Shown here one piece after another: positions 1,876 through 64,000 of a stretch of 64,000 nt of DNA. The position numbers and the translations under genes were made by a program. The stretch is from Bacillota bacterium. Lineage in GTDB: Bacteria > Bacillota_I > Bacilli_A > RFN20 > CAG-288. The DNA is taken from positions 55,567 to 119,566 of the forward strand of contig JAEWSJ010000009.1 in the NCBI GenBank assembly GCA_023398335.1, in the 5' to 3' direction. The notes beneath the pieces were generated by a model that was given only the letters and a program-made list of their open reading frames with translations, ran no database searches and had not been told where the DNA came from. The number at the start of each line of letters is the position of its first letter. The first letter of the stretch is position 1.

Positions 1876-3786
1876 TTATTTTTGTACTCTGTAGAATTGT
1901 TTTGTATCAATATCATGACGTATTAATTTAATAAAATCGTCTAATGATACGGTAACTTGTTCTTGAGTACCAAGAATACGATAAGTAACTGTGTTGTTAT
2001 CTTTTTCTTTATCTCCTATAACAAGAGTGTAAGGAACTTTTTTAACTTGACAGTCACGAATCTTATAACCAACTTTTTCTCCTCTATCATCAACTTCAGA
2101 TCTGATTCTAGCGTTGAGAAGAGCTTCATTAACTTTATTTGCATAATCGAGGTGGAAGTTGTTATTTACTGGAAGAATAACGACTTGTTTAGGACTTAAC
2201 CATGTTGGAAATGCACCTTTAAAGTGTTCTGTAATAATACCGGTAAATCTTTCAATAGAGCCGAATATTGCTCTGTGAATCATTAATGGGGTGACTTTGT
2301 CGCCATTTTGATCAATATATGTGCAATCAAAGCGGCTAGGAAGTTGCATATCTAATTGAATTGTTCCACATTGCCAAATTCTATTTAATGAATCTCTTAA
2401 TTTAAAGTCAAGTTTTGGCCCATAAAAAGCACCATCACCTGGATTAATCTTATAATCAATATTGAAATCTTTTAAGCATTTTTCCAATATCTCTTCAGCT
2501 TTATTCCATGTTTCAATTTTTCCGATAAAACTATCAGGTCTAGTTGATAAAACAATGTAATATGGTAAATTAAATGTTTTATAGATACGATCATATAAAC
2601 TTAATAAGTGTCTAATTTCAGATTCGATTTGATCTTCTCTTAATAATGTATGAGCATCATCTTGAGTAAAGCATCTAACTCTAAACAATCCGTTTAACGC
2701 TCCAGAAGCTTCGTGACGATGGACAAGACCTAATTCGCCTATACGAATAGGTAATTCTTTATATGAGTGAATATCATTCTTATAGACTAATATTGCGCCT
2801 GGGCAATTCATTGGTTTAATTGCAAATGTGTTTTCATCAACTTGAGTTGTGTACATATTTTCTTTGTAATGATCCCAGTGACCTGAGGTTTCCCATAATT
2901 CCTTAGATAGCATTATTGGAGTTCTAACAAAAATATAGTTTTCTTTTGCGTGAATATCGTACCAGAAGTTCTCTAATTCTCTTCTAAGAATCATGCCATT
3001 TGGTAACCAAAATGGAAATCCAGGACCATAATCAGAAATCATGAATAAACCTAATTCTTTACCAAGCTTACGGTGATCACTTTCTTTTCTTTCTTCAAGA
3101 AGCTTTAAGTATGCATCAAGATCTTCCTTAGAGAAGAAACAAGTGCCATAAACTCTTGTTAATTGTTCGTTGTTTTTATCGCCTTTAAAATATGCTCCAG
3201 CAATGGACATAAGCTTAAATGCTTTACAAAGAGCGGTAGAAGCGACATGAGGTCCTCGACAAAGATCAGTGAAATCTCCTTGTGAATAAACTGTTATAGT
3301 TCCTTTTAATTCTTCTAAGTGAATAAGTTTGAATTTTTGATCCTTAAAAATCTTTTTTCCTTCTTCTACAGATATTTCTTTTCTTTCGATTGGAAGTCCG
3401 GATTTTACAATTTTATCCATTTCCTTTTCGATTGCTTTAAAATCATTTTCGGAAATAGGAGTGTTTGTTTTAACATCATAGTAATATCCTTCTTCAACGG
3501 ATGGACCATATGCAAATTGAGCTTCAGGGAAAATATGCTTAATTGCTTGGGCCATGATATGTGCACAAGAATGATTTAATATATCAAGAGCTTCTTTTGA
3601 TTCTTTTGTAACAATTTCAAATTTACAATCTTCCGAAATAGGTAATCTGAAATCTTGAATCTCGTCATTGATTTTAACAGCGATTACTTTCTTCGGAAGT
3701 GAAACAGAGATTCTTGCTGCAATCTCTAAACCCGTCAGTCCATCTTCAACTTCTAAAACTTTACCATCTAATAGTGTTAGTTTCAT
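1876..3786 (-). CDS. thrS: Threonyl-tRNA synthetase
   Basis: 636 aa with TGS, editing and class II core domains. Sequence is diagnostic of ThrRS. Confidence 0.95.
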   Translation of the reverse strand: MKLTLLDGKVLEVEDGLTGLEIAARISVSLPKKVIAVKINDEIQDFRLPISEDCKFEIVTKESKEALDILNHSCAHIMAQAIKHIFPEAQFAYGPSVEEGYYYDVKTNTPISENDFKAIEKEMDKIVKSGLPIERKEISVEEGKKIFKDQKFKLIHLEELKGTITVYSQGDFTDLCRGPHVASTALCKAFKLMSIAGAYFKGDKNNEQLTRVYGTCFFSKEDLDAYLKLLEERKESDHRKLGKELGLFMISDYGPGFPFWLPNGMILRRELENFWYDIHAKENYIFVRTPIMLSKELWETSGHWDHYKENMYTTQVDENTFAIKPMNCPGAILVYKNDIHSYKELPIRIGELGLVHRHEASGALNGLFRVRCFTQDDAHTLLREDQIESEIRHLLSLYDRIYKTFNLPYYIVLSTRPDSFIGKIETWNKAEEILEKCLKDFNIDYKINPGDGAFYGPKLDFKLRDSLNRIWQCGTIQLDMQLPSRFDCTYIDQNGDKVTPLMIHRAIFGSIERFTGIITEHFKGAFPTWLSPKQVVILPVNNNFHLDYANKVNEALLNARIRSEVDDRGEKVGYKIRDCQVKKVPYTLVIGDKEKDNNTVTYRILGTQEQVTVSLDDFIKLIRHDIDTKQFYRVQK

Positions 3787-14404: not shown

Positions 14405-14476
14405 TTGAATAAAATATTTTTTAGTAATAAACTAAATAAATGTTGTTATACTTATTATATAAAAGAGGAAAAAATT

Positions 14477-15868
14477 ATGGAAGAAAAAAAAGAAAGAAAG
14501 CAATTTACTTTTGACAAAATTACAACTCATTTGATGACATCTGGTTTTATTTATCAAGGTAGTGAAATCTATGGTGGCTTAGCTAATTCATGGGACTATG
14601 GTCCATTAGGTTCAGCTTGCAAAAATAATTTGAAAGAATTATGGCGCCATCATTTTGTAAAAACTAATAAATACACATTTGAAATAGACCCTGCGATTAT
14701 TATGAATCCAAAAACATGGGAAGCTACAGGCCATGTGCAAAACTTTCATGATCCATTAGTCGATTGTAAATATTGTCATTCTCGTTTTAGAGCAGATAAA
14801 ATTATTAAGGATCAAAAGCCTGATTTAGATACTGATGCAATGACAACAGAAGAATTAGATTCGATGATTCAATCAGGTGAAATTGTTTGCCCAACATGTG
14901 GAAAGAGTACATTTACCCCTATTAGACAATTCCAAATGATGTTTAAAACTTTTATTGGTGTTAATGAAGAAAAAGCCTCAACAGTATATTTAAGACCCGA
15001 AACAGCACAAGGGTTATTTGTTAATTTTAAGAATGTAATGCGTACTACTAGAAGCAAATTACCTGTTGGAATTTGTGATATAGGCAAAGTATTTAGAAAT
15101 GAAATTACTCCAGGAAACTTCACATTTAGAACTAGAGAATTTGAACAAATGGAAATCGAATTCTTCTGTAAACCAGATGAAGATTTAAAATGGTTTGATT
15201 ACTGGAAATCAGAGTGCTTATCATTCGTTGAAAAATTAGGTTTAAGAGCAGATCATCTTCGCTTTAGAGATCATGAGCCAGCTGAATTAGCTTTCTATTC
15301 CAAAGCAACAACTGATATTGAATATCTTTTCCCATTTGGTTGGGGAGAGCTTATGGGAATTGCGTCCCGTACTGATTATGATTTAAAGAGACATATGGAA
15401 TACTCCGGACAAGATTTAACATATCTAGATCCTGATACAAATACAAGATACATTCCACATGTTATCGAGCCTTCATTTGGATGCGATCGTTTATTACTTG
15501 CTCTTTTATGTGATGCTTATGATGAGGAAGAACTTGAGAAAGATACGAGAATTGTTATGCATCTTGAAAAAGGATTATCTCCATATGATGTAGCAATTTT
15601 ACCTTTATCTAATAAGTTATCAGAAACTTGTGAAAATAAACTGTTCAAATTATTAGCTGAAAAATATAATGTTACTTTTGATACAACAGGTAGTATTGGG
15701 AAACGTTATCGTCGTCAAGATGCGATTGGTACACCATACTGTATTACTTACGATTTTGATTCGGAAAATGATAACATGGTTACAATTCGTGATCGTGATT
15801 CAATGAATCAAGAAAGAGTTTCAATTGACTCATTAATTAGTTACTTAAATAAACAATTTAACCGTTAA
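14477..15868 (+). CDS. glyQS: Glycyl-tRNA synthetase, alpha2 dimeric type
   Basis: N-terminus MEEKKERKQFTFDKI...GFIYQGSEIYGGLANSWDYGPLG matches GlyRS. ATG at 14477 follows an AAGAGGA RBS. The track ORF starts from a TTG at 14405 and is over-extended. Confidence 0.9.
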   Translation: MEEKKERKQFTFDKITTHLMTSGFIYQGSEIYGGLANSWDYGPLGSACKNNLKELWRHHFVKTNKYTFEIDPAIIMNPKTWEATGHVQNFHDPLVDCKYCHSRFRADKIIKDQKPDLDTDAMTTEELDSMIQSGEIVCPTCGKSTFTPIRQFQMMFKTFIGVNEEKASTVYLRPETAQGLFVNFKNVMRTTRSKLPVGICDIGKVFRNEITPGNFTFRTREFEQMEIEFFCKPDEDLKWFDYWKSECLSFVEKLGLRADHLRFRDHEPAELAFYSKATTDIEYLFPFGWGELMGIASRTDYDLKRHMEYSGQDLTYLDPDTNTRYIPHVIEPSFGCDRLLLALLCDAYDEEELEKDTRIVMHLEKGLSPYDVAILPLSNKLSETCENKLFKLLAEKYNVTFDTTGSIGKRYRRQDAIGTPYCITYDFDSENDNMVTIRDRDSMNQERVSIDSLISYLNKQFNR

Positions 15869-25811: not shown

Positions 25812-27539
25812 ATGTTACGTACAAAAAATAATGGGGAATTAAGACTAAGTAATGTTGGTGAGAATGTTATCCTTACTGGCTGGGTTTCTAAAGTAAGAAA
25901 TCTTGGAGCTTTGGTATTCGTTGACTTACGAGATCGATATGGAATAACTCAAATAAATATAGATCCAAAGTTATATGATTTAACACCTTTAAAAAATGAA
26001 TATTGTGTTCAAATAGAGGGCGTAGTTCAAGCTAAAGCTGAGCAAAATAAGAATTTGCCTACTGGTGAAATTGAAGTCTTAGCTTCTAAAATAAAGATTT
26101 TTTCTGAATCGGAATTAACCCCGTTCATTATTGCTGATAAGACTGATGCCCTTGAAGATACAAGATTAAAAACAAGGTATCTTGATTTAAGAAGACCTGT
26201 TCTTCAACATAATCTTGAACTAAGACACGCTTTATTAAAATCTACAAGAGAGTATCTAGAAGGATTAAATTTTTTGGAGGTTGAAACTCCAACTTTAATT
26301 AAATCTACTCCTGAAGGTGCTCGTGATTATTTAGTTCCTTCTCGTACTAGACCAGGTACTTTCTACGCCTTACCTCAATCTCCACAAATTTACAAGCAAC
26401 TATTAATGATTTCCGGTATGGATAGATATTATCAAATTGCACGTTGTTACCGAGATGAAGATCAAAGAGCAGATAGACAACCAGAATTTACTCAAATTGA
26501 TGTTGAAATGTCATTTATTGAAAGAGAAGATGTTTTAGGTGTAATTGAGAATTTATTACGCAAAGTATTTAAAGACACTATCAATTATGATTTGCCAAAA
26601 TTTAAACGTATTTCATATAAAGATGCTATAGAAAAATATGGCAGCGATAAACCGGATATGCGTTTTGATATGGTACTACAAGATGTTTCTTCATTATTAA
26701 GTAATGCTGGATTCGAAGCTTATAACAATAAGATTGTAAAGTGCTTTGTTGCGCATTCATCTGCTGCGGCGACCACAAGAAAAATTATTGATAAAGATAA
26801 TGAAGAAGCTAAAAAGTTTAAAGTTCATGGTGTAAGCCATCTAAAATATATTAATGGCGAATTATCAGGTTCTATCATTAAATTCTTTTCACAAGAAACC
26901 ATCGCTTCTTTAGTCTCATCTTTGAAATTAGAAGAAGATGATTTAGTTATTGTTTGTGCAGATGAAGACATGGAAAAATGTTCTATAGCCTTAGGTGCAT
27001 TAAGATGTGCTTATGCTGAAAAGTTAGGCCTTAGAGATAATAATGTATTTGCCCCTTTGTTTGTTCTAGATTGGCCGTTATTTGGGCGTGAAGATGGCAA
27101 TATTGTTTCATTATCAAACCCATTTACTAGACCACGTGATGAAGATTTAAAGTACTTAGATAGCGACCCAACAAAAGTTCTATCTTATGCTTATGATACG
27201 GTTATGAATGGACTTGAATTATCATCTGGTTCGTTGAGAATATTTGATGGTAAACTTCAGGAAAAAGTATTTGAATTATTAGGTTTATCTGATGAAGATA
27301 TTAAGAACAGATTTGGTTTCTTTGTTGACGCATTTAATTATGGAACTCCCCCACACGGCGGATTTGCCCTTGGTGTTGAAAGAATTTCTATGTTATTATG
27401 TAAAACTGATAACGTCCGTGATGTTGTCGCATTCCCAAAAAATTTGAAAGCTATTTGCCCAATGGCAGATTGTCCTTCTTCAGTTCCAACAGAAAATTTG
27501 GATATCTTGGGAATAGAAGTTAAAAAGGAGATAAAATAA
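25812..27539 (+). CDS. aspS: Aspartyl-tRNA synthetase
   Basis: OB-fold N-terminus, class II motifs (FRDE-like QIARCYRDEDQRADRQPEFTQ, GGFALGVERI). Confidence 0.95.
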   Translation: MLRTKNNGELRLSNVGENVILTGWVSKVRNLGALVFVDLRDRYGITQINIDPKLYDLTPLKNEYCVQIEGVVQAKAEQNKNLPTGEIEVLASKIKIFSESELTPFIIADKTDALEDTRLKTRYLDLRRPVLQHNLELRHALLKSTREYLEGLNFLEVETPTLIKSTPEGARDYLVPSRTRPGTFYALPQSPQIYKQLLMISGMDRYYQIARCYRDEDQRADRQPEFTQIDVEMSFIEREDVLGVIENLLRKVFKDTINYDLPKFKRISYKDAIEKYGSDKPDMRFDMVLQDVSSLLSNAGFEAYNNKIVKCFVAHSSAAATTRKIIDKDNEEAKKFKVHGVSHLKYINGELSGSIIKFFSQETIASLVSSLKLEEDDLVIVCADEDMEKCSIALGALRCAYAEKLGLRDNNVFAPLFVLDWPLFGREDGNIVSLSNPFTRPRDEDLKYLDSDPTKVLSYAYDTVMNGLELSSGSLRIFDGKLQEKVFELLGLSDEDIKNRFGFFVDAFNYGTPPHGGFALGVERISMLLCKTDNVRDVVAFPKNLKAICPMADCPSSVPTENLDILGIEVKKEIK

Positions 27540-55492: not shown

Positions 55493-55516
55493 AAAAAAGT
55501 CCAAGAAGGACTTTTT
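55493..55516. terminator. Terminator of leuS (usable in both directions), overlapping the leuS stop
   Basis: aagtcc aagaa ggactt hairpin flanked by A6 and T5. Confidence 0.6.
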
Positions 55517-57920
55517 ATCTAACAACAATATTCAATATTTTGTTTTTTACAAATATAACCTTAACTATTGTTTTGCCGTCTAAATTACGTTTTACCGCAT
55601 CTATTTCACTAGCTAAAGCTAATACCTTATTCTGATCATTTTCATCTCTAGTTACTTCAAGAGTACCTCTTGTTTTGCCATTAACGGATACGGCTATAAC
55701 AACAGTATTTTGAACTGTCTTATTATCATCGTAAGTTGGCCAAGATTCAAAATCTATAAAGCCATTCCCACCCATCATATTAAACAATTCTTCGCCAACA
55801 TGTGGAACAACTGGGAATAACATTTTTACTAAGCCTAACATATATGTTCTATTTAGTTTTGGTGAATTATATAGTTCATTAACAAAAATCATCAATTGAG
55901 ATATTGCAGTGTTAAAACTTAAGCTTTCATAATCAGCAGTAACTTTCTTAACTGTATAGTTATATATGTAATCAAGAGACTTAACTTCTTCATCAGTCCA
56001 TTTTACTAGATATTCTTCATCTGAAAATAATCTATATACTCTTTGAATAAATCTCTTTGCGCCAGCTAAGCCATTATTAGACCATGGTAAACTTTGATTT
56101 AATGGTCCCTTAAACAATTCATATAATCTAAGCGAATCAGCACCAAATTCATTTATAACATCATCAGGATTAACAACATTACCTCTAGATTTAGACATTT
56201 TTTGTCCATCAGAGCCTAAAATCATTCCTTGATGATATAATTTCTTAAATGGTTCTTTGCAGGAGAATACACCTTTGTCATATAAGTATTTATGCCAAAA
56301 TCTAGCATAAAGAAGATGTAAAACCGCGTGCTCAGATCCGCCGATATATTGATCAACTGGTAGCCAATGATCAAGCAATGTTTTATCGCCAATTTCATTT
56401 TCATTTTTAGGATCAATATAACGAGCATAATACCATGATGAACCAGCCCATTGAGGCATAATGTTAGTTTCTCTTTCACCTTTTTTACCATCAATTACAA
56501 CATTGATAAATGATGTAGCTTTTGAAAGAGGTGGCTTACCATTTGTAGTAGGTTTATAATCATCAAGTTCAGGTAAGACTAATGGAAGTTCACTGTAATT
56601 AACAGGTTTTAACGAACCATCTTCCATATGAATTACTGGAATTGGTTCACCCCAATAACGTTGACGTGAAAACAACCAGTCACGTAATTTGAAATTAACC
56701 TTACGTTGACCTTTTCCACTTTCTTCTAGATGCTTTGTAATTATTTCTTTAGCATCTTTTATATTTAATCCATCGGCATATGAAGAATTCATATGTTTTG
56801 AATCACCTTCAAACGCACATGAAGATATATCACCTTCAAGAACTTGAATCATTTCAATATTATGTTTTTTAGCGAATTCGTAATCTCTTTGATCATGAGA
56901 AGGAACAGCCATTACCGCTCCCGAACCATAAGAAGCTAAAACATAATCACCTATATATATAGGAACGATGGTGTTATTAATTGGATTTATAGCGTAAGCG
57001 CCAATAAACACTCCTGTTTTATCTTTATTTAATTCTGTTCTTTCAAGATCAGATTTAGATTTAATCGAGTCTAAATATGCATCGACATATTTTTGACATT
57101 CTTTTGATGTCAATTTCTTTACTAATGGATGTTCTGGGGCTAAAACAACGTATGTACAGCCAAATAAAGTATCTACTCTAGTTGTATAGACATTAAAGTA
57201 GTCTGAAGTATTTTTAACATCAAAGCGAACTTCAACACCTTCAGAGCGACCTATCCAGTTACGTTGCATTTCTACAGTTGAACTTGGCCATTCAAGCAAT
57301 GGTAAATCATCTAATAATTTTTGAGCATAAGCAGTAATTTTTAATATCCATTGTTTCATTTGAACTTTAATTACTGGGAATCCACCACGTTCTGACTTGC
57401 CGTCAATAATTTCTTCGTTAGCCAAAACAGTTCCGAGTTCCGGACAATAGTTAACCGGTCTTTCATCCATATATGCTAATTTATCATCAAATAATTTTAA
57501 GAATATCCATTGTGTCCATTTATAAAAAGATGGATCTGATGTATGAATTTCCTTGCTCCAATCATAAGACAAACCACATGAATTCATTTGCTTTTTAAAA
57601 TTTTGAATATTTGCTTCGGTAAATGGGCCAGGATTATTGTTAGTTTTTATCGCATATTGTTCCGCTGGTAAGCCGAAAGAATCAAAACCCATTGGATAAA
57701 GAACGTTAAAGCCTTGCATTCTTTTCATTCTAGCGGTAGCGTCACTGGCGGTATATCCTTCAATATGTCCAACATGTAAACCTTGGGCTGATGGATATGG
57801 GAACATATCCATTAAAAAATACTTAGGTTTAGAAAAATCACGAACATCACATTCATAAATATTACTTTCCAACCATTTCTTTTGCCATTTTTTCTCTATT
57901 TCATTTGCATCATAAGTCAT
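55515..57920 (-). CDS. leuS: Leucyl-tRNA synthetase
   Basis: HVGH and KMSKS motifs. 801 aa. Confidence 0.95.
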
Positions 57921-58223: not shown

Positions 58224-58835
58224 ATGTCAAGATACACAGGACCATCCTGGAAAGTTTCAAGAAGATTAGGCTATTCAACTCTTGAGACAGGTCGTGAATT
58301 AGCTAAAAGAGCATATGCTCCAGGTCAACACGGAAATGACCGTCGTAGAAAATTATCAGAATATGGTAAACAATTAAACGAAAAACAAAAGTTAAGACAA
58401 ACTTATGGAGTTTCCGAAAGACAATTTAGACGTTTATTCATCATGGCTAAAGCTGACAAAAACACAGTTACAGGCTTAGCATTCATGAGAATTCTTGAAA
58501 CTAGATTGGACAACGTTGTCTATCGTTTAGGTTTCGCCCGTACAAGAAGAGCTGCTAGACAACTCGTTTGCCACGGTCACGTTACAGTAAATGGTAACAA
58601 ACTTGATATTCCATCATACTTAGTTGCAATCAATGATATCGTTTCATTAGATGAAAAAGCTAAGAACTTTGGAATTGTCAAAGATGCATTAGAAACACAA
58701 GTCAGTGTTGTTGCTTATGTCGAATGTGATAAAGAAAAGAAGGAAGGAAAGCTCGTTAGATTACCAGAACGTAATGAACTTACTCCTGAAATTGTTGAAT
58801 CACAAATCGTCGAATTCTACAACAGAAAGCTCTAA
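58224..58835 (+). CDS. rpsD: 30S ribosomal protein S4
   Basis: [17 protein letters not shown]-terminus. Confidence 0.95.
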
Positions 58836-58844
58836 TATATTACT

Positions 58845-58870
58845 AAAACGGCTTCGGCCGTTTTTTTTAT
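58845..58870 (+). terminator. Rho-independent terminator after rpsD
   Basis: aaaacggc ttcg gccgtttt followed by T8. Confidence 0.75.
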
Positions 58871-58912
58871 AAAAAAACTTGCAAGTACACAATCTTGCAA
58901 GTTATTTTTTAG
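58871..58912. terminator. Second hairpin, serving as terminator of the minus-strand membrane-protein gene
   Basis: acttgcaag/cttgcaagt 9 bp stem with a flanking A-run and T-run. Confidence 0.55.
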
Positions 58913-59651
58913 TTTTTAAATCTTTTATCAATAATTCGTATTGTTCCGCAGATATTTTGTGTTCTTGAAATAGTCTTTCATATTCTGTTAATTTATCTAC
59001 ATTGCCAGTGCTTTCTGTTTGAGCATTGACGACTTCCCTTGTTGGAGAATAAATCCCCATATCAGTAATATTTAAGTTTTTCTTCTTTTTATTATTCATA
59101 GCCTTTTTAACAAGTTCTGTCTTAGATATCATTGTTGTATAATCCAAATTTTTTTCTTGCCACATTTGCTCAGCCATAACATTACTTGAAACTAATTGAG
59201 CAACATTTTGAGAAGTTCTAACTCCTGGTTTTGCAATTCGATAATACGTAAGTTTTTGCGCATCTAGTTCACTTACTGGATAGAGTTTATGTTTTTTGAT
59301 TTTTTTCTTCAATAAATAATTATCAATTGTGACCGATAAAAACACATGAATTAAAAATATCGCAAAAATACCAATATATATCGGATATTCGTTAAAGCCA
59401 CTTCTGAAATAGAATAAAATATTATGCACTATTGTTTGAGCATTTGTATCCATTGGTATTTTATATAGCAGTTCTTGAATAGCTTCCATTCCTGGAATTG
59501 GTAAACAATAATAGTAAATAACAAGTAGAAACAAACTGTAATACTGAAGTCTAACTAATAGATAAAGTGGACCAAAAAAGAAATACAAAAAAGAAAAACC
59601 AACTCTTTTACTTTTCTTGTTTAATGCAATATCCTGTAGATCAACTTTCAT
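58902..59651 (-). CDS. Membrane protein with C-terminal SHOCT-like domain
   Basis: Start at the MKVDLQD Met, preceded by an AAAGGA RBS. The track ORF is over-extended into an upstream terminator. Two or three TM helices. C-terminus KLTEYERLFQEHKISAEQYELLIKDLK is SHOCT-like. Confidence 0.5.
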   Translation of the reverse strand: MKVDLQDIALNKKSKRVGFSFLYFFFGPLYLLVRLQYYSLFLLVIYYYCLPIPGMEAIQELLYKIPMDTNAQTIVHNILFYFRSGFNEYPIYIGIFAIFLIHVFLSVTIDNYLLKKKIKKHKLYPVSELDAQKLTYYRIAKPGVRTSQNVAQLVSSNVMAEQMWQEKNLDYTTMISKTELVKKAMNNKKKKNLNITDMGIYSPTREVVNAQTESTGNVDKLTEYERLFQEHKISAEQYELLIKDLKTKK

Positions 59652-59720
59652 TTGTATGTCCTTTTTTCTTGTTAATAATGTTATATCATATTTCTTTATA
59701 TAATTTAACATATAAAGATA

Positions 59721-59760
59721 CAAAAAGCATACTTTTGTATTATCTAACAAAAGTATGCTA
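59721..59760 (-). terminator. Terminator after the LRR-lipoprotein gene
   Basis: Perfect 13 bp inverted repeat agcatacttttgt/acaaaagtatgct, followed by a U-run on the minus strand. Confidence 0.65.
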
Positions 59761-59774
59761 ATAAATTAACCAAA

Positions 59775-61877
59775 TTAACGTGTCTTTACAATAATAATTT
59801 CGTATGGAATTGTAAATGGATTACCGAATTCATCTTCCTGTAGGTAATCAACATTCCAGTCTTTGGATAACTCAATCCATTTTTGATCATCTCTAATGTT
59901 AGTAACATCAAAGACACCGTCGAGGTAATAATCTAAAACTTCAATATCAATTTTCTTTACGCCTGAGTTAGAAAATACACATCCCTTAACTGAACGAATA
60001 GATTTAGGTAAAACAAATTTTTCATTTAAACTTGTGCATCCTTCGAAACAGAATGAGCCAATATTATTTACACCTAGGTATGATACCTTTGTAGTATCTT
60101 TAGTATCAATAATAGTATCGAATATTACTGATTCTAATCCGGTACATCCTTGGAATGCACGAGAACCGATAGATTTGATATTAATTGTGAAATCAACATC
60201 TTTAATTCCCTTACAACCATAAAACGCTTGAATTCCGATTTCAGTAATTGATAAAGAAAAAGTTACTTCAACTAAACTAGTCATGTTGTAAAACATCTTG
60301 CTAGTTACGACAGTCGGACCATTCTTAAAATTATAAGATTTTATTTCTGGAACATTATCCCCAAATATATCAGTTAAATCATCACCATAAGGCAAAGCTA
60401 ATTTAACCGCATTTGAACATAATTTAAAGGCATTTTTAGATATTTCAGTATTATCACCTAATTCAATCTCAGTAATATGTGAGCATCCACTAAAAGCGTT
60501 TTCACCAATAAAGACTGAAGTAGGAAGGTTAACGTAAGAAATGTTACATCCAGCAAAGGCTTCAGAACCAACATACTTAACAGTATTCGGTATACTTATG
60601 GTATAACTATAACCACTAAAGCATTTATCTCCAACCCCATATACAGAATATGGAATTTGATAATCAGCAGGTATTTTACCTTTAAACCCAGCTAGGAATT
60701 TACCTAGAATTACTTTGCCATCTGCTAAGGAAGAATACCATGGGCAAGTTAAACTTGATAAGCTTAATTTAGAGATATATTGAAGAGAGGAATAATTCTT
60801 TAACTCATTTAATTTTGTTAAATCTGCTAAATTATCACTGCCAATGTATTCAACTTCATTAATATCTAAAGAAGTAACATTAATAGCAGCGCTAATAGCT
60901 GAATCAATTACAACTTTATCTTTGTTTCCAAATACTTTAAGTTTTGTTAATTTATCTAAACCATCAGTATCACTAAATAATTCGAATAACAATTTATTAC
61001 CGTCGTAGGCAAAAGTCTCAACATTTTTGGTTTCTTTAAATACATCTACTCCATATTCAATGTTAGTGCCATTAAATACACAAGATTTAAGAGCAGAACA
61101 ATTTGCGAAAGCTCTATTGCCTATTCTATTAAGGGTAGAAGGAATATCTACATTTGTAATTGATGTATTTTCAAATGCGGAAGCACCAATTCCTTCTAAT
61201 GTTGAAGGAAAAGTAATCGATTTTAGATTAGTATCTTTAAACGCATTTGCAGCAATATACTTAATATTGGAAGGAACAACATATGAAGATACATCACCAA
61301 TATAATCATATAACGTATCTCCGAAAATTATTGCACCAGTTTTATTAGTAATGTAGGAAGAATAAAATGGTGTTGAATCAAATGCTCCATCTCCAACGTA
61401 TTTAAGATTTGTTAAACTATCAAGATTAATTTCATTTAATGAAGTGTCTCCACTAAAAGCATAGGCTCCAATAGAATTGATATATTTTCCTAAATTTACT
61501 GAAGTTATATCTTTATTATTTTTCATGAATTCATCGCCTAAAGCGACAATCTTATAGCCACCATCAGTCTCAGCAACATCAGTTCGAATAGCATCTTCAA
61601 TTGTAACTTTGTTATTTTCAACAAATCCTTTAATATCACCTAAAGAAGAAGTGTAAATAAACGAATCTAAGTTAATCGTATCATCATAAGACTTTGGATC
61701 TTCATCACCTAGACTGGCTAGTTTTTCATCTTTTCCCGCATTTTGTGAGAATTTAAATCTACTTAAAAACTTAGTTTTTTGCAACGGATTAACAAAAACT
61801 GACTCTTCTTCACATGAAGTTATCGATAATATTGATGCGGCGAGAAGAAGCAATCCGATATACTTGTATTTTTTCAT
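59775..61877 (-). CDS. Surface lipoprotein with BspA-type leucine-rich repeats
   Basis: Start at MKKYKYIGLLLLAASILSITSC with a lipobox, preceded by a GGAGGAGG RBS. Multiple repeats of the form ...IGxxAFxxCxxLxxVxxP... Confidence 0.65.
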   Translation of the reverse strand: MKKYKYIGLLLLAASILSITSCEEESVFVNPLQKTKFLSRFKFSQNAGKDEKLASLGDEDPKSYDDTINLDSFIYTSSLGDIKGFVENNKVTIEDAIRTDVAETDGGYKIVALGDEFMKNNKDITSVNLGKYINSIGAYAFSGDTSLNEINLDSLTNLKYVGDGAFDSTPFYSSYITNKTGAIIFGDTLYDYIGDVSSYVVPSNIKYIAANAFKDTNLKSITFPSTLEGIGASAFENTSITNVDIPSTLNRIGNRAFANCSALKSCVFNGTNIEYGVDVFKETKNVETFAYDGNKLLFELFSDTDGLDKLTKLKVFGNKDKVVIDSAISAAINVTSLDINEVEYIGSDNLADLTKLNELKNYSSLQYISKLSLSSLTCPWYSSLADGKVILGKFLAGFKGKIPADYQIPYSVYGVGDKCFSGYSYTISIPNTVKYVGSEAFAGCNISYVNLPTSVFIGENAFSGCSHITEIELGDNTEISKNAFKLCSNAVKLALPYGDDLTDIFGDNVPEIKSYNFKNGPTVVTSKMFYNMTSLVEVTFSLSITEIGIQAFYGCKGIKDVDFTINIKSIGSRAFQGCTGLESVIFDTIIDTKDTTKVSYLGVNNIGSFCFEGCTSLNEKFVLPKSIRSVKGCVFSNSGVKKIDIEVLDYYLDGVFDVTNIRDDQKWIELSKDWNVDYLQEDEFGNPFTIPYEIIIVKTR

Positions 61878-61894: not shown

Positions 61895-63787
61895 TTAAAT
61901 AATCTTTACATCAGTATTTAATGTATATACTTCAAGTGGTTTCTCTTCATTAAACGAAAGGTATATTTTACTGTCATCTTTAACATCTAAATTTGAAATG
62001 TCAATATCGCAAGTTTTAGAGTTAATCAAGCACTTTAAATATTTTTTATCTCCATAATTTAATATTTCAACTTTTTCGTAGTCGATATTATTAGCACTTT
62101 GCTCAAGAGAAGCTTTTGGTGTAAAGCGAATACGATATTCGCATTGTAAAACTCTTCTACCTTCGACATTTGAAAAACGACGGATAAATTCATCATTTAG
62201 TCTATATTTTGCGTTAGCAACAACTCCACAGAATCTGATTACACGTTTGCCATTTTCATCTTTTTCTCTGGCTTTTTCAAAATGACCAACAGATTCAACA
62301 ATATGGGATACTGGCTTAATATTTGAATCATCATCGATGATGATGTCTTCATAAGAGACATCAAAATTGAAACTATTCCCAACCTTTACTTCCTTATTGC
62401 TAGTAGCGAATAAATATTCGTTATTTATTTCATCAAACAAAGTAACTAAATACTTATTTTCTTCCATAAATTCACAGTTAAATACTGGTAAAGAGAATGT
62501 TTTTCCTTCGTGAATAGAAATATTTGGGATTTTTACAATTCTCTTTTTATTTGGAAGTGTTTTAAAAGCATCGAATATATTAACTTCTTTGTTAAATAAA
62601 GTAATGGTCTTTTCATCTTTTTGCATTGAAATAACCGAATATGTTGGATAATATGGCATGATTGATTGCTCATTATCATTGTCGAATAATTGTAAGAATT
62701 CATTTTTAAATAACGCGTGTAATTTATCGCCAATTTCATACTTTACATTAGCACCAACTTTAATAATAATAGGAGATTTTGAAATAGACTCATCAGTTAA
62801 AACATTATTTCCTAAATCACAATATAAGAGAGTTTCATTACCTAATTTTTCAATAGATGAAACAACAACATCTAATGTAGCTTTAGTTTTCTTCTCCGAA
62901 ATAACAATGTGATCTGGTCTAATACCTAATGTAATAGTTTTATCCCCACCAAAATAATTGACATCACATTTGACAAAATATTTATTCTCAACACTCATGG
63001 TTTGACTATCTTCAAAAGCAATATTAATTAAATCTTTTTGTCTTTTTAAATTTACATTGAAGAAATTCATTTGTGGAGTACCAATAAATCCTGCAACAAA
63101 CTTATTTATCGGGTGATTATATAAATTAATAGGAGTATCTATTTGTTGAACATAACCTAGTTTCATAACAACAATACGTGTGCCCATGGTCATAGCTTCA
63201 ACCTGATCGTGAGTAACATAAATAAATGTTGTTGCTAACTTCTTATGAAGTCTAGAAATTTCCGCTCTCATTTGAGCTCTTAATTTTGCATCTAGATTAG
63301 ATAAAGGTTCATCAAGTAAAAATACTTTAGGATTACGGACGATAGCACGTCCTAAAGAAACTCTTTGTCTTTGACCACCGGACATTTCCTTTGGCTTTTT
63401 TTGTAAATAATCTTCAATTCCAAGTATTCTTGCAGCTTCAAGAACTCGTTTATTGATTTCGTCTTTTGGCATATGTTGATTTTTCAATGAAAAAGCCATG
63501 TTTTCATAAACACTCATATGAGGATATAATGCGTAGTTTTGGAAAACCATTGCAATATCCCTTTCTTTTGGTTGAACATCATTGACAAGATTATCACCTA
63601 TGTATAAATCACCAGTAGTTATTTCTTCAAGGCCAGCAATCATACGTAAAGTGGTTGATTTACCACAACCAGATGGGCCAACAAAAACAATGAATTCTTT
63701 ATCTTTAATATTGATATTAAAATCATTGACCGCCTTTGTTCCATTTGGATAAACCTTGAATACGTGATTTAATACTACATTAGCCAT
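61895..63787 (-). CDS. Sugar-ABC-type ATPase (MalK/MsmK-like) with an extra C-terminal extension of about 260 aa
   Basis: Walker A GPSGCGKST, signature LSGGQRQRV, Walker B LLDEPLSNLD. The MalK-like regulatory domain extends to about residue 370. Residues 370-630 have no recognisable motif. Confidence 0.8.
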   Translation of the reverse strand: MANVVLNHVFKVYPNGTKAVNDFNINIKDKEFIVFVGPSGCGKSTTLRMIAGLEEITTGDLYIGDNLVNDVQPKERDIAMVFQNYALYPHMSVYENMAFSLKNQHMPKDEINKRVLEAARILGIEDYLQKKPKEMSGGQRQRVSLGRAIVRNPKVFLLDEPLSNLDAKLRAQMRAEISRLHKKLATTFIYVTHDQVEAMTMGTRIVVMKLGYVQQIDTPINLYNHPINKFVAGFIGTPQMNFFNVNLKRQKDLINIAFEDSQTMSVENKYFVKCDVNYFGGDKTITLGIRPDHIVISEKKTKATLDVVVSSIEKLGNETLLYCDLGNNVLTDESISKSPIIIKVGANVKYEIGDKLHALFKNEFLQLFDNDNEQSIMPYYPTYSVISMQKDEKTITLFNKEVNIFDAFKTLPNKKRIVKIPNISIHEGKTFSLPVFNCEFMEENKYLVTLFDEINNEYLFATSNKEVKVGNSFNFDVSYEDIIIDDDSNIKPVSHIVESVGHFEKAREKDENGKRVIRFCGVVANAKYRLNDEFIRRFSNVEGRRVLQCEYRIRFTPKASLEQSANNIDYEKVEILNYGDKKYLKCLINSKTCDIDISNLDVKDDSKIYLSFNEEKPLEVYTLNTDVKII

Positions 63788-63804: not shown

Positions 63805-64000
63805 TTATCTTTCATTAATAATAGTAATTGACATCGATGGAATAGATATAACTCCATCTTTTACTTCAGAATATTCACCATTTGATGATAAACAATTCTC
63901 TATTTTTCCGTTAATCTCTAATTCGTTATAACTAGAATCTTTTAAATCTATACCATAATTTATTAGCAAATATTTTGATGACTTCTCGTATGTTTTCTTA
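63805..64000 (-). CDS. C-terminal fragment of an upstream gene; the 5' part lies outside the window
   Basis: Open frame on the minus strand ending ...GVISIPSMSITIINER with the stop at 63805-63807. Not in the ORF track. Confidence 0.3.
   Translation of the reverse strand, partial: KKTYEKSSKYLLINYGIDLKDSSYNELEINGKIENCLSSNGEYSEVKDGVISIPSMSITIINER

Follow-up and report, generated by a model that had tools for sequence, protein, structure and literature searches.

In ATP-binding cassette (ABC) importers of the MalK type, the two ATPase subunits are joined beneath their ATP-binding domains by the regulatory domains (RDs), which also act as a regulatory surface. In Escherichia coli MalK this domain is the docking surface for EIIA-Glc and MalT, and in Lactobacillus casei the MalK-type RD is acted on by P-Ser-HPr. 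The TOBE-type tail of ModC shuts the pump when it binds, on the cytoplasmic side, the solute being transported (trans-inhibition), an effect likewise exerted by the C-terminal domain of MetN, which has a different fold. The domain layout of MalK-type ATPases, including the RD, has been described in a review (PMC6906923). The 64,000-nucleotide stretch of contig JAEWSJ010000009.1 from a Bacillota bacterium analyzed here (the window) encodes on its reverse strand a complete ABC importer ATPase of 630 aa (61895..63787, stop codon TAA at 61895-61897), the C-terminal extension of which is best read as two additional, strongly diverged and fast-evolving copies (RD2 and RD3) of the protein's own MalK-type RD.

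Domain architecture of the ATPase and identity of its C-terminal extension

The ATPase gene is a single unbroken frame in the window sequence, with an ATG start preceded by GGAGG 9 nt upstream, and an identical protein (P0001) is present on independent public assemblies. Pfam located ABC_tran at residues 21-162 (E 1.2e-31), OB_MalK at 236-294 and TOBE_2 at 287-328; past residue 375 the scan gave no credible match. The nucleotide-binding domain (NBD) spans residues 1-235 (63083..63787, reverse strand) and shows in translation Walker A GPSGCGKST (37-45), Q83, the signature SGGQ (136-139), Walker B LLDE (157-160) and H193, all of them invariant in 54 homologues. It is followed by the canonical MalK-type regulatory domain, RD1 (residues 236-372; 62672..63082, reverse strand), covered by OB_MalK and TOBE_2. 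The NCBIfam model of the UgpC subfamily (NF008653, PRK11650) matched residues 1-375 above its cutoff (472.8 vs 432 bits), and the cutoff of the E. coli MalK equivalog NF008233 was not reached (421 vs 568 bits). The closest solved homologues, from C. thermocellum (Clo1313_2554, 7x0q, 370 aa, 447 bits) and Bacillus subtilis (MsmX, 6yir, 373 aa, 390 bits), align end to end with residues 1-377 and 1-374 of the query, respectively; therefore, about 255 residues (~376-630) exceed a complete MsmX-type ATPase. Judged by these alignments, residues 1-375 are a complete MsmX/MalK/UgpC-type (CUT1) ABC ATPase composed of an ATP-binding domain and one RD. The original prediction had described residues 1-370 as a canonical sugar-importer ATPase with a regulatory domain, and on this Pfam, NCBIfam and the PDB alignments agree. 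The single-RD architecture of CUT1 ATPases (about 350-400 aa) does not extend to the whole protein, which has 630 aa.

The structure of the extension was modeled with AlphaFold2 both within the full protein, from 54 homologues, and alone, from 24 sequences. In the full-length model the predicted local distance difference test score (pLDDT) was about 90 over residues 380-630 and above 90 in RD2; the model of the extension alone reached a mean pLDDT of 91.4 and a predicted template modeling score (pTM) of 0.82, and consisted nearly entirely of beta-strands plus one helix of 16 residues. A Foldseek search with the latter model returned as top 35 matches only ATPases of ABC importers whose C-terminal domain is of the MalK type (identified as MsmX, MalK, SugC, AlgS, PotA, FbpC and GlcV), each covering ~105-155 columns, that is, roughly one RD and about half of the query. 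The TOBE-type domains of ModE and ModG were also among the fold matches. As modeled, the extension superposes on known MalK RD and TOBE domains; taken at this level it is not a new fold, it is of the MOP/TOBE-like beta-barrel type, and it is structurally explained. A carbohydrate-binding-module fold was considered and rejected, no such module being found among the fold matches.

A separate observation concerns the full-length model (m2ee7bdbc367f), in which much of the conserved NBD scored only pLDDT 36-58, while the divergent extension exceeded 90. The low confidence in the NBD likely comes from its near-invariant 54-sequence alignment, which carries little co-variation; pLDDT in this model tracks alignment diversity, not foldedness.

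At the profile level, comparison of family sub-alignments with hhalign related RD1 (236-375) to residues 376-500 with a probability of 87% (E 4e-6, 105 collinear columns, score 38.6) and residues 376-500 to 501-630 with a probability of 67% (E 5e-5, 87 collinear columns, score 31.9). For RD1 and residues 501-630 the probability was 26% (E 7e-4, 76 collinear columns, score 26.3), and this alignment paired V..VE.LGNE of RD1 with V..LDYGN of RD3. Reversed profiles or segments of the ATP-binding domain served as controls; in these twelve comparisons the scores lay between 9 and 17, the probability did not exceed 1.4% and no more than 22 columns were aligned. RD2, the first extra RD-like all-beta module, was delimited to residues ~376-492 (62312..62662, reverse strand) from hhalign, AlphaFold2 and the fold matches, and RD3, the second one, to residues ~493-630 (61898..62311, reverse strand) from hhalign and the order of strands and helix. 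In RD3 the 16-residue helix occupies residues 532-547, and a DYG/NYG motif in a hairpin corresponds to ELG of RD1; the order of elements of RD3 in the AlphaFold2 model (three strands, helix, seven strands) mirrors that of RD1. Most likely, RD2 and RD3 arose by internal tandem duplication.

The assignment of the extension to two diverged RDs is subject to several caveats. The fold-search results do not show which half of the extension was superposed, and the evidence for RD3 is weaker than that for RD2 (26% to RD1, 67% to RD2). In addition, the Pfam models of the TOBE clan (TOBE, TOBE_2, OB_MalK) did not match the extension in the window sequence, and the 24 extension sequences gave no significant Pfam match, TOBE being matched in 3 of 24 with a best E of 0.1. 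When PDB sequences were searched with a profile of the extension, no match appeared even at E<=10, and the absence of obvious motifs that had been pointed out at the outset holds, as no recognisable sequence motif is present. The accompanying guess, that the extension may contain further TOBE or OB-like repeats, gained support from the fold search and from the profile-profile comparison with its controls. Of the two outcomes that would have refuted the original prediction, a missed stop does not apply, and a match to a well-known domain applies in part: the MalK RD/TOBE fold did emerge at the level of structure and profiles but not for any Pfam model.

Distribution and conservation of the extended family

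Among the best 120 homologous clusters of the full-length protein, 110 measured 616-673 aa, mostly with 93-100% query coverage and 47-64% identity; the remaining ones were eight clusters of 910-1009 aa and two fragments. At least 118 protein clusters carry the extension at full length. Mean pairwise identity in the 54 homologues was 0.87 for the NBD, 0.46 for RD1, 0.36 for RD2 and 0.33 for RD3. At the well-conserved positions of the extension, Gly, Pro and hydrophobic or aromatic residues predominate, with E439, E542 and D577 in addition, a pattern that looks like that of a scaffold and not of a catalytic site.

The number of modules is plastic among the relatives, ranging from three to about five. 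In P0014, P0019 and P0134 (918-924 aa) an RD1-like piece (independent E-value, iE, ~1e-6) is nested inside RD3, and the same nest also holds an RD2-like module (iE 1e-16; hhalign 98.8%). Proteins P0016-P0018, P0020 and P0021 (991-1009 aa) carry an insert of ~310 aa between RD2 and RD3; since the insert of this ~1000-aa class has no similarity to RD modules, the idea that the long variants all simply contain extra RD copies was discarded. P0093 (910 aa; a cluster of 75 member sequences) has a membrane domain of the RDD family fused at its C-terminus.

The named relatives, obtained from a genome scan with a 6-sequence alignment that returned four loci of metagenome-assembled genomes (MAGs), are "Bacilli bacterium" MAGs and one "uncultured Clostridiaceae", and one locus (L009) has a Spo0A gene nearby; the family is therefore not confined to Mollicutes, and the statement of the original prediction that oversized MalK homologs are typical of that group was not confirmed. 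When the extension alone was compared with a word index of 5.8 billion proteins no match was obtained, though that database contains the full-length protein itself and over 100 of its relatives, and a 24-sequence extension profile retrieved from the same index only six short fragments. This empty result appears to reflect a limit of the index for sub-sequences and not rarity. An exhaustive HMMER search with the extension over 1.84 billion cluster representatives yielded nine matches at E<=1e-3, of which all but one were weak (23-34% identity); single-sequence HMMER is too insensitive for such a fast-evolving region.

Operon context and probable substrate

Contig L001, on which an identical protein is encoded, shows the genes located beyond position 64000. 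There, the operon comprises, in this order, an SBP_bac_1 solute-binding lipoprotein (427 aa), two BPD_transp_1 permeases, one of MalF size (529 aa) and one MalG-like (302 aa), two GH13 proteins, the ATPase and a lipoprotein with leucine-rich repeats (LRRs) of the LRR_5 family; the permease genes that had been suspected just outside the window are thus present. The first GH13 protein (operon gene 4, 504 aa), which lacks a signal peptide, probably acts in the cytoplasm as an alpha-glucosidase, and the second one (operon gene 5, 567 aa, alpha-amylase family, PF00128), with a signal peptide and the lipobox LISC (...TLISCGEE), is probably a surface amylase. Both genes lie upstream of the ATPase gene (L001 6764-9983), and the 3' end of the GH13 lipoprotein gene, cut by the window edge, was read from the sequence at 63805..64000 (reverse strand). 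Based on the two GH13 genes and the MalF/MalG-like permeases of the operon, it can be inferred that the transported substrate is alpha-glucan/maltodextrin, despite the automatic name "UgpC"; this name, as carried by the relatives, is probably wrong as to substrate.

The same operon order recurs in L003, L004, L005 (partial), L006, L007 and L010, whereas L009 contains the operon without the LRR gene, and in L008 the alpha-glucan locus is rearranged and includes a pullulanase-like enzyme. The solute-binding protein and two MalF/MalG-type permeases also accompany the ATPase in L003, L004 and L006-L010, and the signal-less cytoplasmic GH13 is encoded in the operon at 7 of 9 loci. The genes flanking the operon differ among the three loci with annotated neighbours (L001, L007 and L010), and no regulator gene adjoins it in any of them. 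Three sites resembling LacI/CcpA operators (TGAAAACGCTTAAA, TGTAAGCGTTTT and TGGAAACGCTTACA) are found in the 397-nt region upstream of the solute-binding protein gene (L001 2509-2905) and one upstream of the operon in L007 (1329-1800), so that control at the level of transcription, of the ordinary kind, is probably present as well.

The last gene of the operon (59775..61877, reverse strand) encodes a BspA-type LRR_5 lipoprotein of 700 aa. The LRR_5 profile (PF13306) matched this protein in five stretches (E 1.4e-71, 238.8 bits vs 27.7), its N-terminus, MKKYKYIGLLLLAASILSITSC, contains the lipobox I-T-S-C as read from the sequence, and the gene starts 17 nt past the ATPase stop, behind GGAGGAGG. 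The ATG at 61895 that the open reading frame lister gave as its start is spurious, the real start being at 61877. Profile, lipobox and start position agree with the neighbour as it had been described originally. No terminator-like site was found in the window between the ATPase and LRR genes; a terminator-like hairpin with a 13-bp stem followed by a T run lies directly after the LRR gene (59726..59759, reverse strand) and likely marks the end of the transcription unit. The ATPase-then-LRR order is kept in six other loci (L003-L007 and L010), and the HupY/LrrG adhesin model scored far under its cutoff on the LRR protein (66.5 vs 1250 bits). Because of its conserved position as last gene of the alpha-glucan operon, the lipoprotein may take part in glucan capture or organise the surface amylase and the binding protein, instead of mediating the host or cell adhesion in which the original prediction implicated this class. 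Given the conserved coupling to a starch-uptake operon, nutrient capture may be the function of some "adhesin-like" LRR_5 proteins.

Regarding the rest of the window, its GC content is ~30% and it reads in the standard bacterial code. Two strong hairpins occur at 58845-58903, between rpsD (58224-58835, forward strand) and a convergent open reading frame for a 282-aa membrane protein (58902-59750, reverse strand), and the one at 58876-58903 has the form of a terminator whichever strand is read. T-box leaders are common upstream of aminoacyl-tRNA synthetase genes in Bacilli. Four such genes are located in the window, encoding threonyl-tRNA synthetase (ThrRS, 1876-3786), a class II synthetase (14405-15868), an aspartyl-tRNA synthetase (AspRS)-like protein (25812-27539) and leucyl-tRNA synthetase (LeuRS, 55515-57920); in an Rfam scan over 1-64000 no family reached its gathering score, T-box leaders were undetected and no tRNA genes were reported.

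Proposed role of RD2 and RD3 and comparison with known systems

Altogether, the 630-aa protein is probably the ATPase of a maltodextrin/alpha-glucan CUT1 importer in which two duplicated RDs enlarge the cytoplasmic dimer/regulatory platform. The grounds for this reading are the domain identity, the conservation of the family and the operon context, upon which a duplication origin, a dimer or regulatory role and the substrate are proposed. The surface amylase would cut alpha-glucan outside the cell, the binding protein and the MalFG-like permeases would import the resulting dextrins, the cytoplasmic GH13 would hydrolyse them, and the ATPase would power the importer by ATP hydrolysis. With three RDs per subunit and six per dimer, the cytoplasmic stalk would be much longer, adding dimer contacts as well as extra docking or ligand-sensing surface, and this additional surface may tune ATPase activity and hence glucan uptake. 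A bolder version of this scheme, to be entertained only tentatively, is that RD2 and RD3 constitute an unrecognised, expandable cytoplasmic sensor array, in which repurposed RD barrels would gate the pump upon binding of the imported dextrin or of a carbon-status protein. If true, this would represent transporter-level catabolite control in uncultured small-genome Bacilli, replacing the enterobacterial EIIA-Glc/MalT logic, and the relatives of ~920-1009 aa, with more modules or the ~310-aa insert, would be elaborations of the same device.

Two narrower readings of the extra RDs are somewhat less likely still, and about equally so. According to the first one, they are a cytoplasmic sensor of imported maltose/maltodextrin, or of a metabolite derived from it, that imposes trans-inhibition, as happens through the TOBE tail in ModC, through the C2 domain in MetN or through the NrtA-like tail in NrtC. 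The TOBE/MOP-like fold class binds small ligands in ModC, ModE and ModG, which were among the fold matches, and NrtC and CmpC, ABC ATPases with C-terminal sensor tails, appear in the PDB match list. The conserved aromatic residues of RD3 (Y551, Y578, Y583, F503 and F519) could stack on sugars; however, they may simply belong to the core, the extension alignment showed no conserved cluster of polar or charged residues, and we know of no sugar-binding TOBE domain or MalK RD.

The second one regards the extra RDs as a docking platform for a clade-specific protein partner, for which P-Ser-HPr or another carbon-status protein, a sequestered MalT-like transcription factor, or the cytoplasmic GH13 of the operon (allowing hydrolysis at the pump) are candidates. 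The co-encoding of this GH13 in 7 of 9 loci is in line with the last of them, and the fast evolution of RD2 and RD3 fits co-evolving interfaces. The lack of an adjacent regulator gene in the loci with annotated neighbours also speaks for docking, although the LacI/CcpA-like sites that precede the operon in L001 and L007 point to ordinary transcriptional control. More generally, the MalK RD, described in the review mentioned above (PMC6906923), is an established protein-docking surface.

It is improbable that the extension is neutral or purely structural, for instance stabilising the dimer in a small-genome, possibly wall-less organism without any regulation. The extension is the least conserved part of the protein, Gly, Pro and hydrophobic residues make up most of its conserved positions, and the module count varies from three to about five, as would be expected under this explanation; yet over 100 clusters, with overall identities as low as 47%, keep it at a near-constant length (proteins of 616-653 aa), it folds confidently in the AlphaFold2 models, and small genomes usually lose dispensable tails. 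Finally, the possibility of an annotation or assembly artefact (a missed stop or a fused downstream frame) or of a degenerate second ATP-binding domain is already refuted, as no stop interrupts the frame either in the window or in at least 118 homologous clusters from independent assemblies, and a single ABC_tran match accompanies an extension predicted as all-beta with one helix.

The role of the MalK-type RD outside enterobacteria is poorly understood, and the large natural family with a tripled, in some members further multiplied, RD provides a handle on its possible functions as dimer clamp, docking surface or solute sensor. A domain model for the extension, together with a corrected alpha-glucan/maltodextrin label, would improve the annotation of many metagenome-assembled Bacilli.

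In the literature on MalK regulatory domains, on MalK homologues of Mycoplasma and other Mollicutes and on inducer exclusion in Firmicutes, no paper describing an extended MalK was found. Compared by description only, the Mycoplasma proteins MG187 and MPN134 are similar in that they are MalK/UgpC-like, of ~585 aa, with an unexplained C-terminal extension of ~200 aa, and are encoded in small low-GC genomes. With MetN C2 (3tui), NrtC/CmpC (8wm7, 9u9z) and the CBS domains of OpuA (7ahc) the protein shares the principle that an extra cytoplasmic domain tunes the pump; these systems entered the match lists through their ATP-binding domains, and the folds of their tails (ACT-like, binding-protein-like and CBS, respectively) differ from that of the extension, so that the analogy is one of principle only. 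The di-Mop domain of ModE (1h9r, 1b9m), ModG (1h9j) and the TOBE tail of ModC (3d31) bind molybdate or tungstate through defined residues, whereas the extension shows no significant Pfam TOBE match and a role with oxyanions is not expected in a glucan operon.

The 630-aa protein scores above the cutoff of the UgpC subfamily model, but UgpC itself has ~356 aa and one RD, and the operon described here contains two GH13 genes and MalF/MalG-like permeases and not ugpBAE/glpQ. The closest resemblance is with MsmX, MsmK and MalK (6yir, 7x0q, and E. coli MalK 1q12 and 2r6g), with which the protein shares the NBD motifs, the OB_MalK plus TOBE_2 regulatory domain and the CUT1 operon partners. The solved MsmX/MalK-type members all end after one RD (353-406 aa), whereas the protein of 630 aa adds two RD-like modules, and this tripled-RD layout is a real and conserved departure from the architecture of the family.

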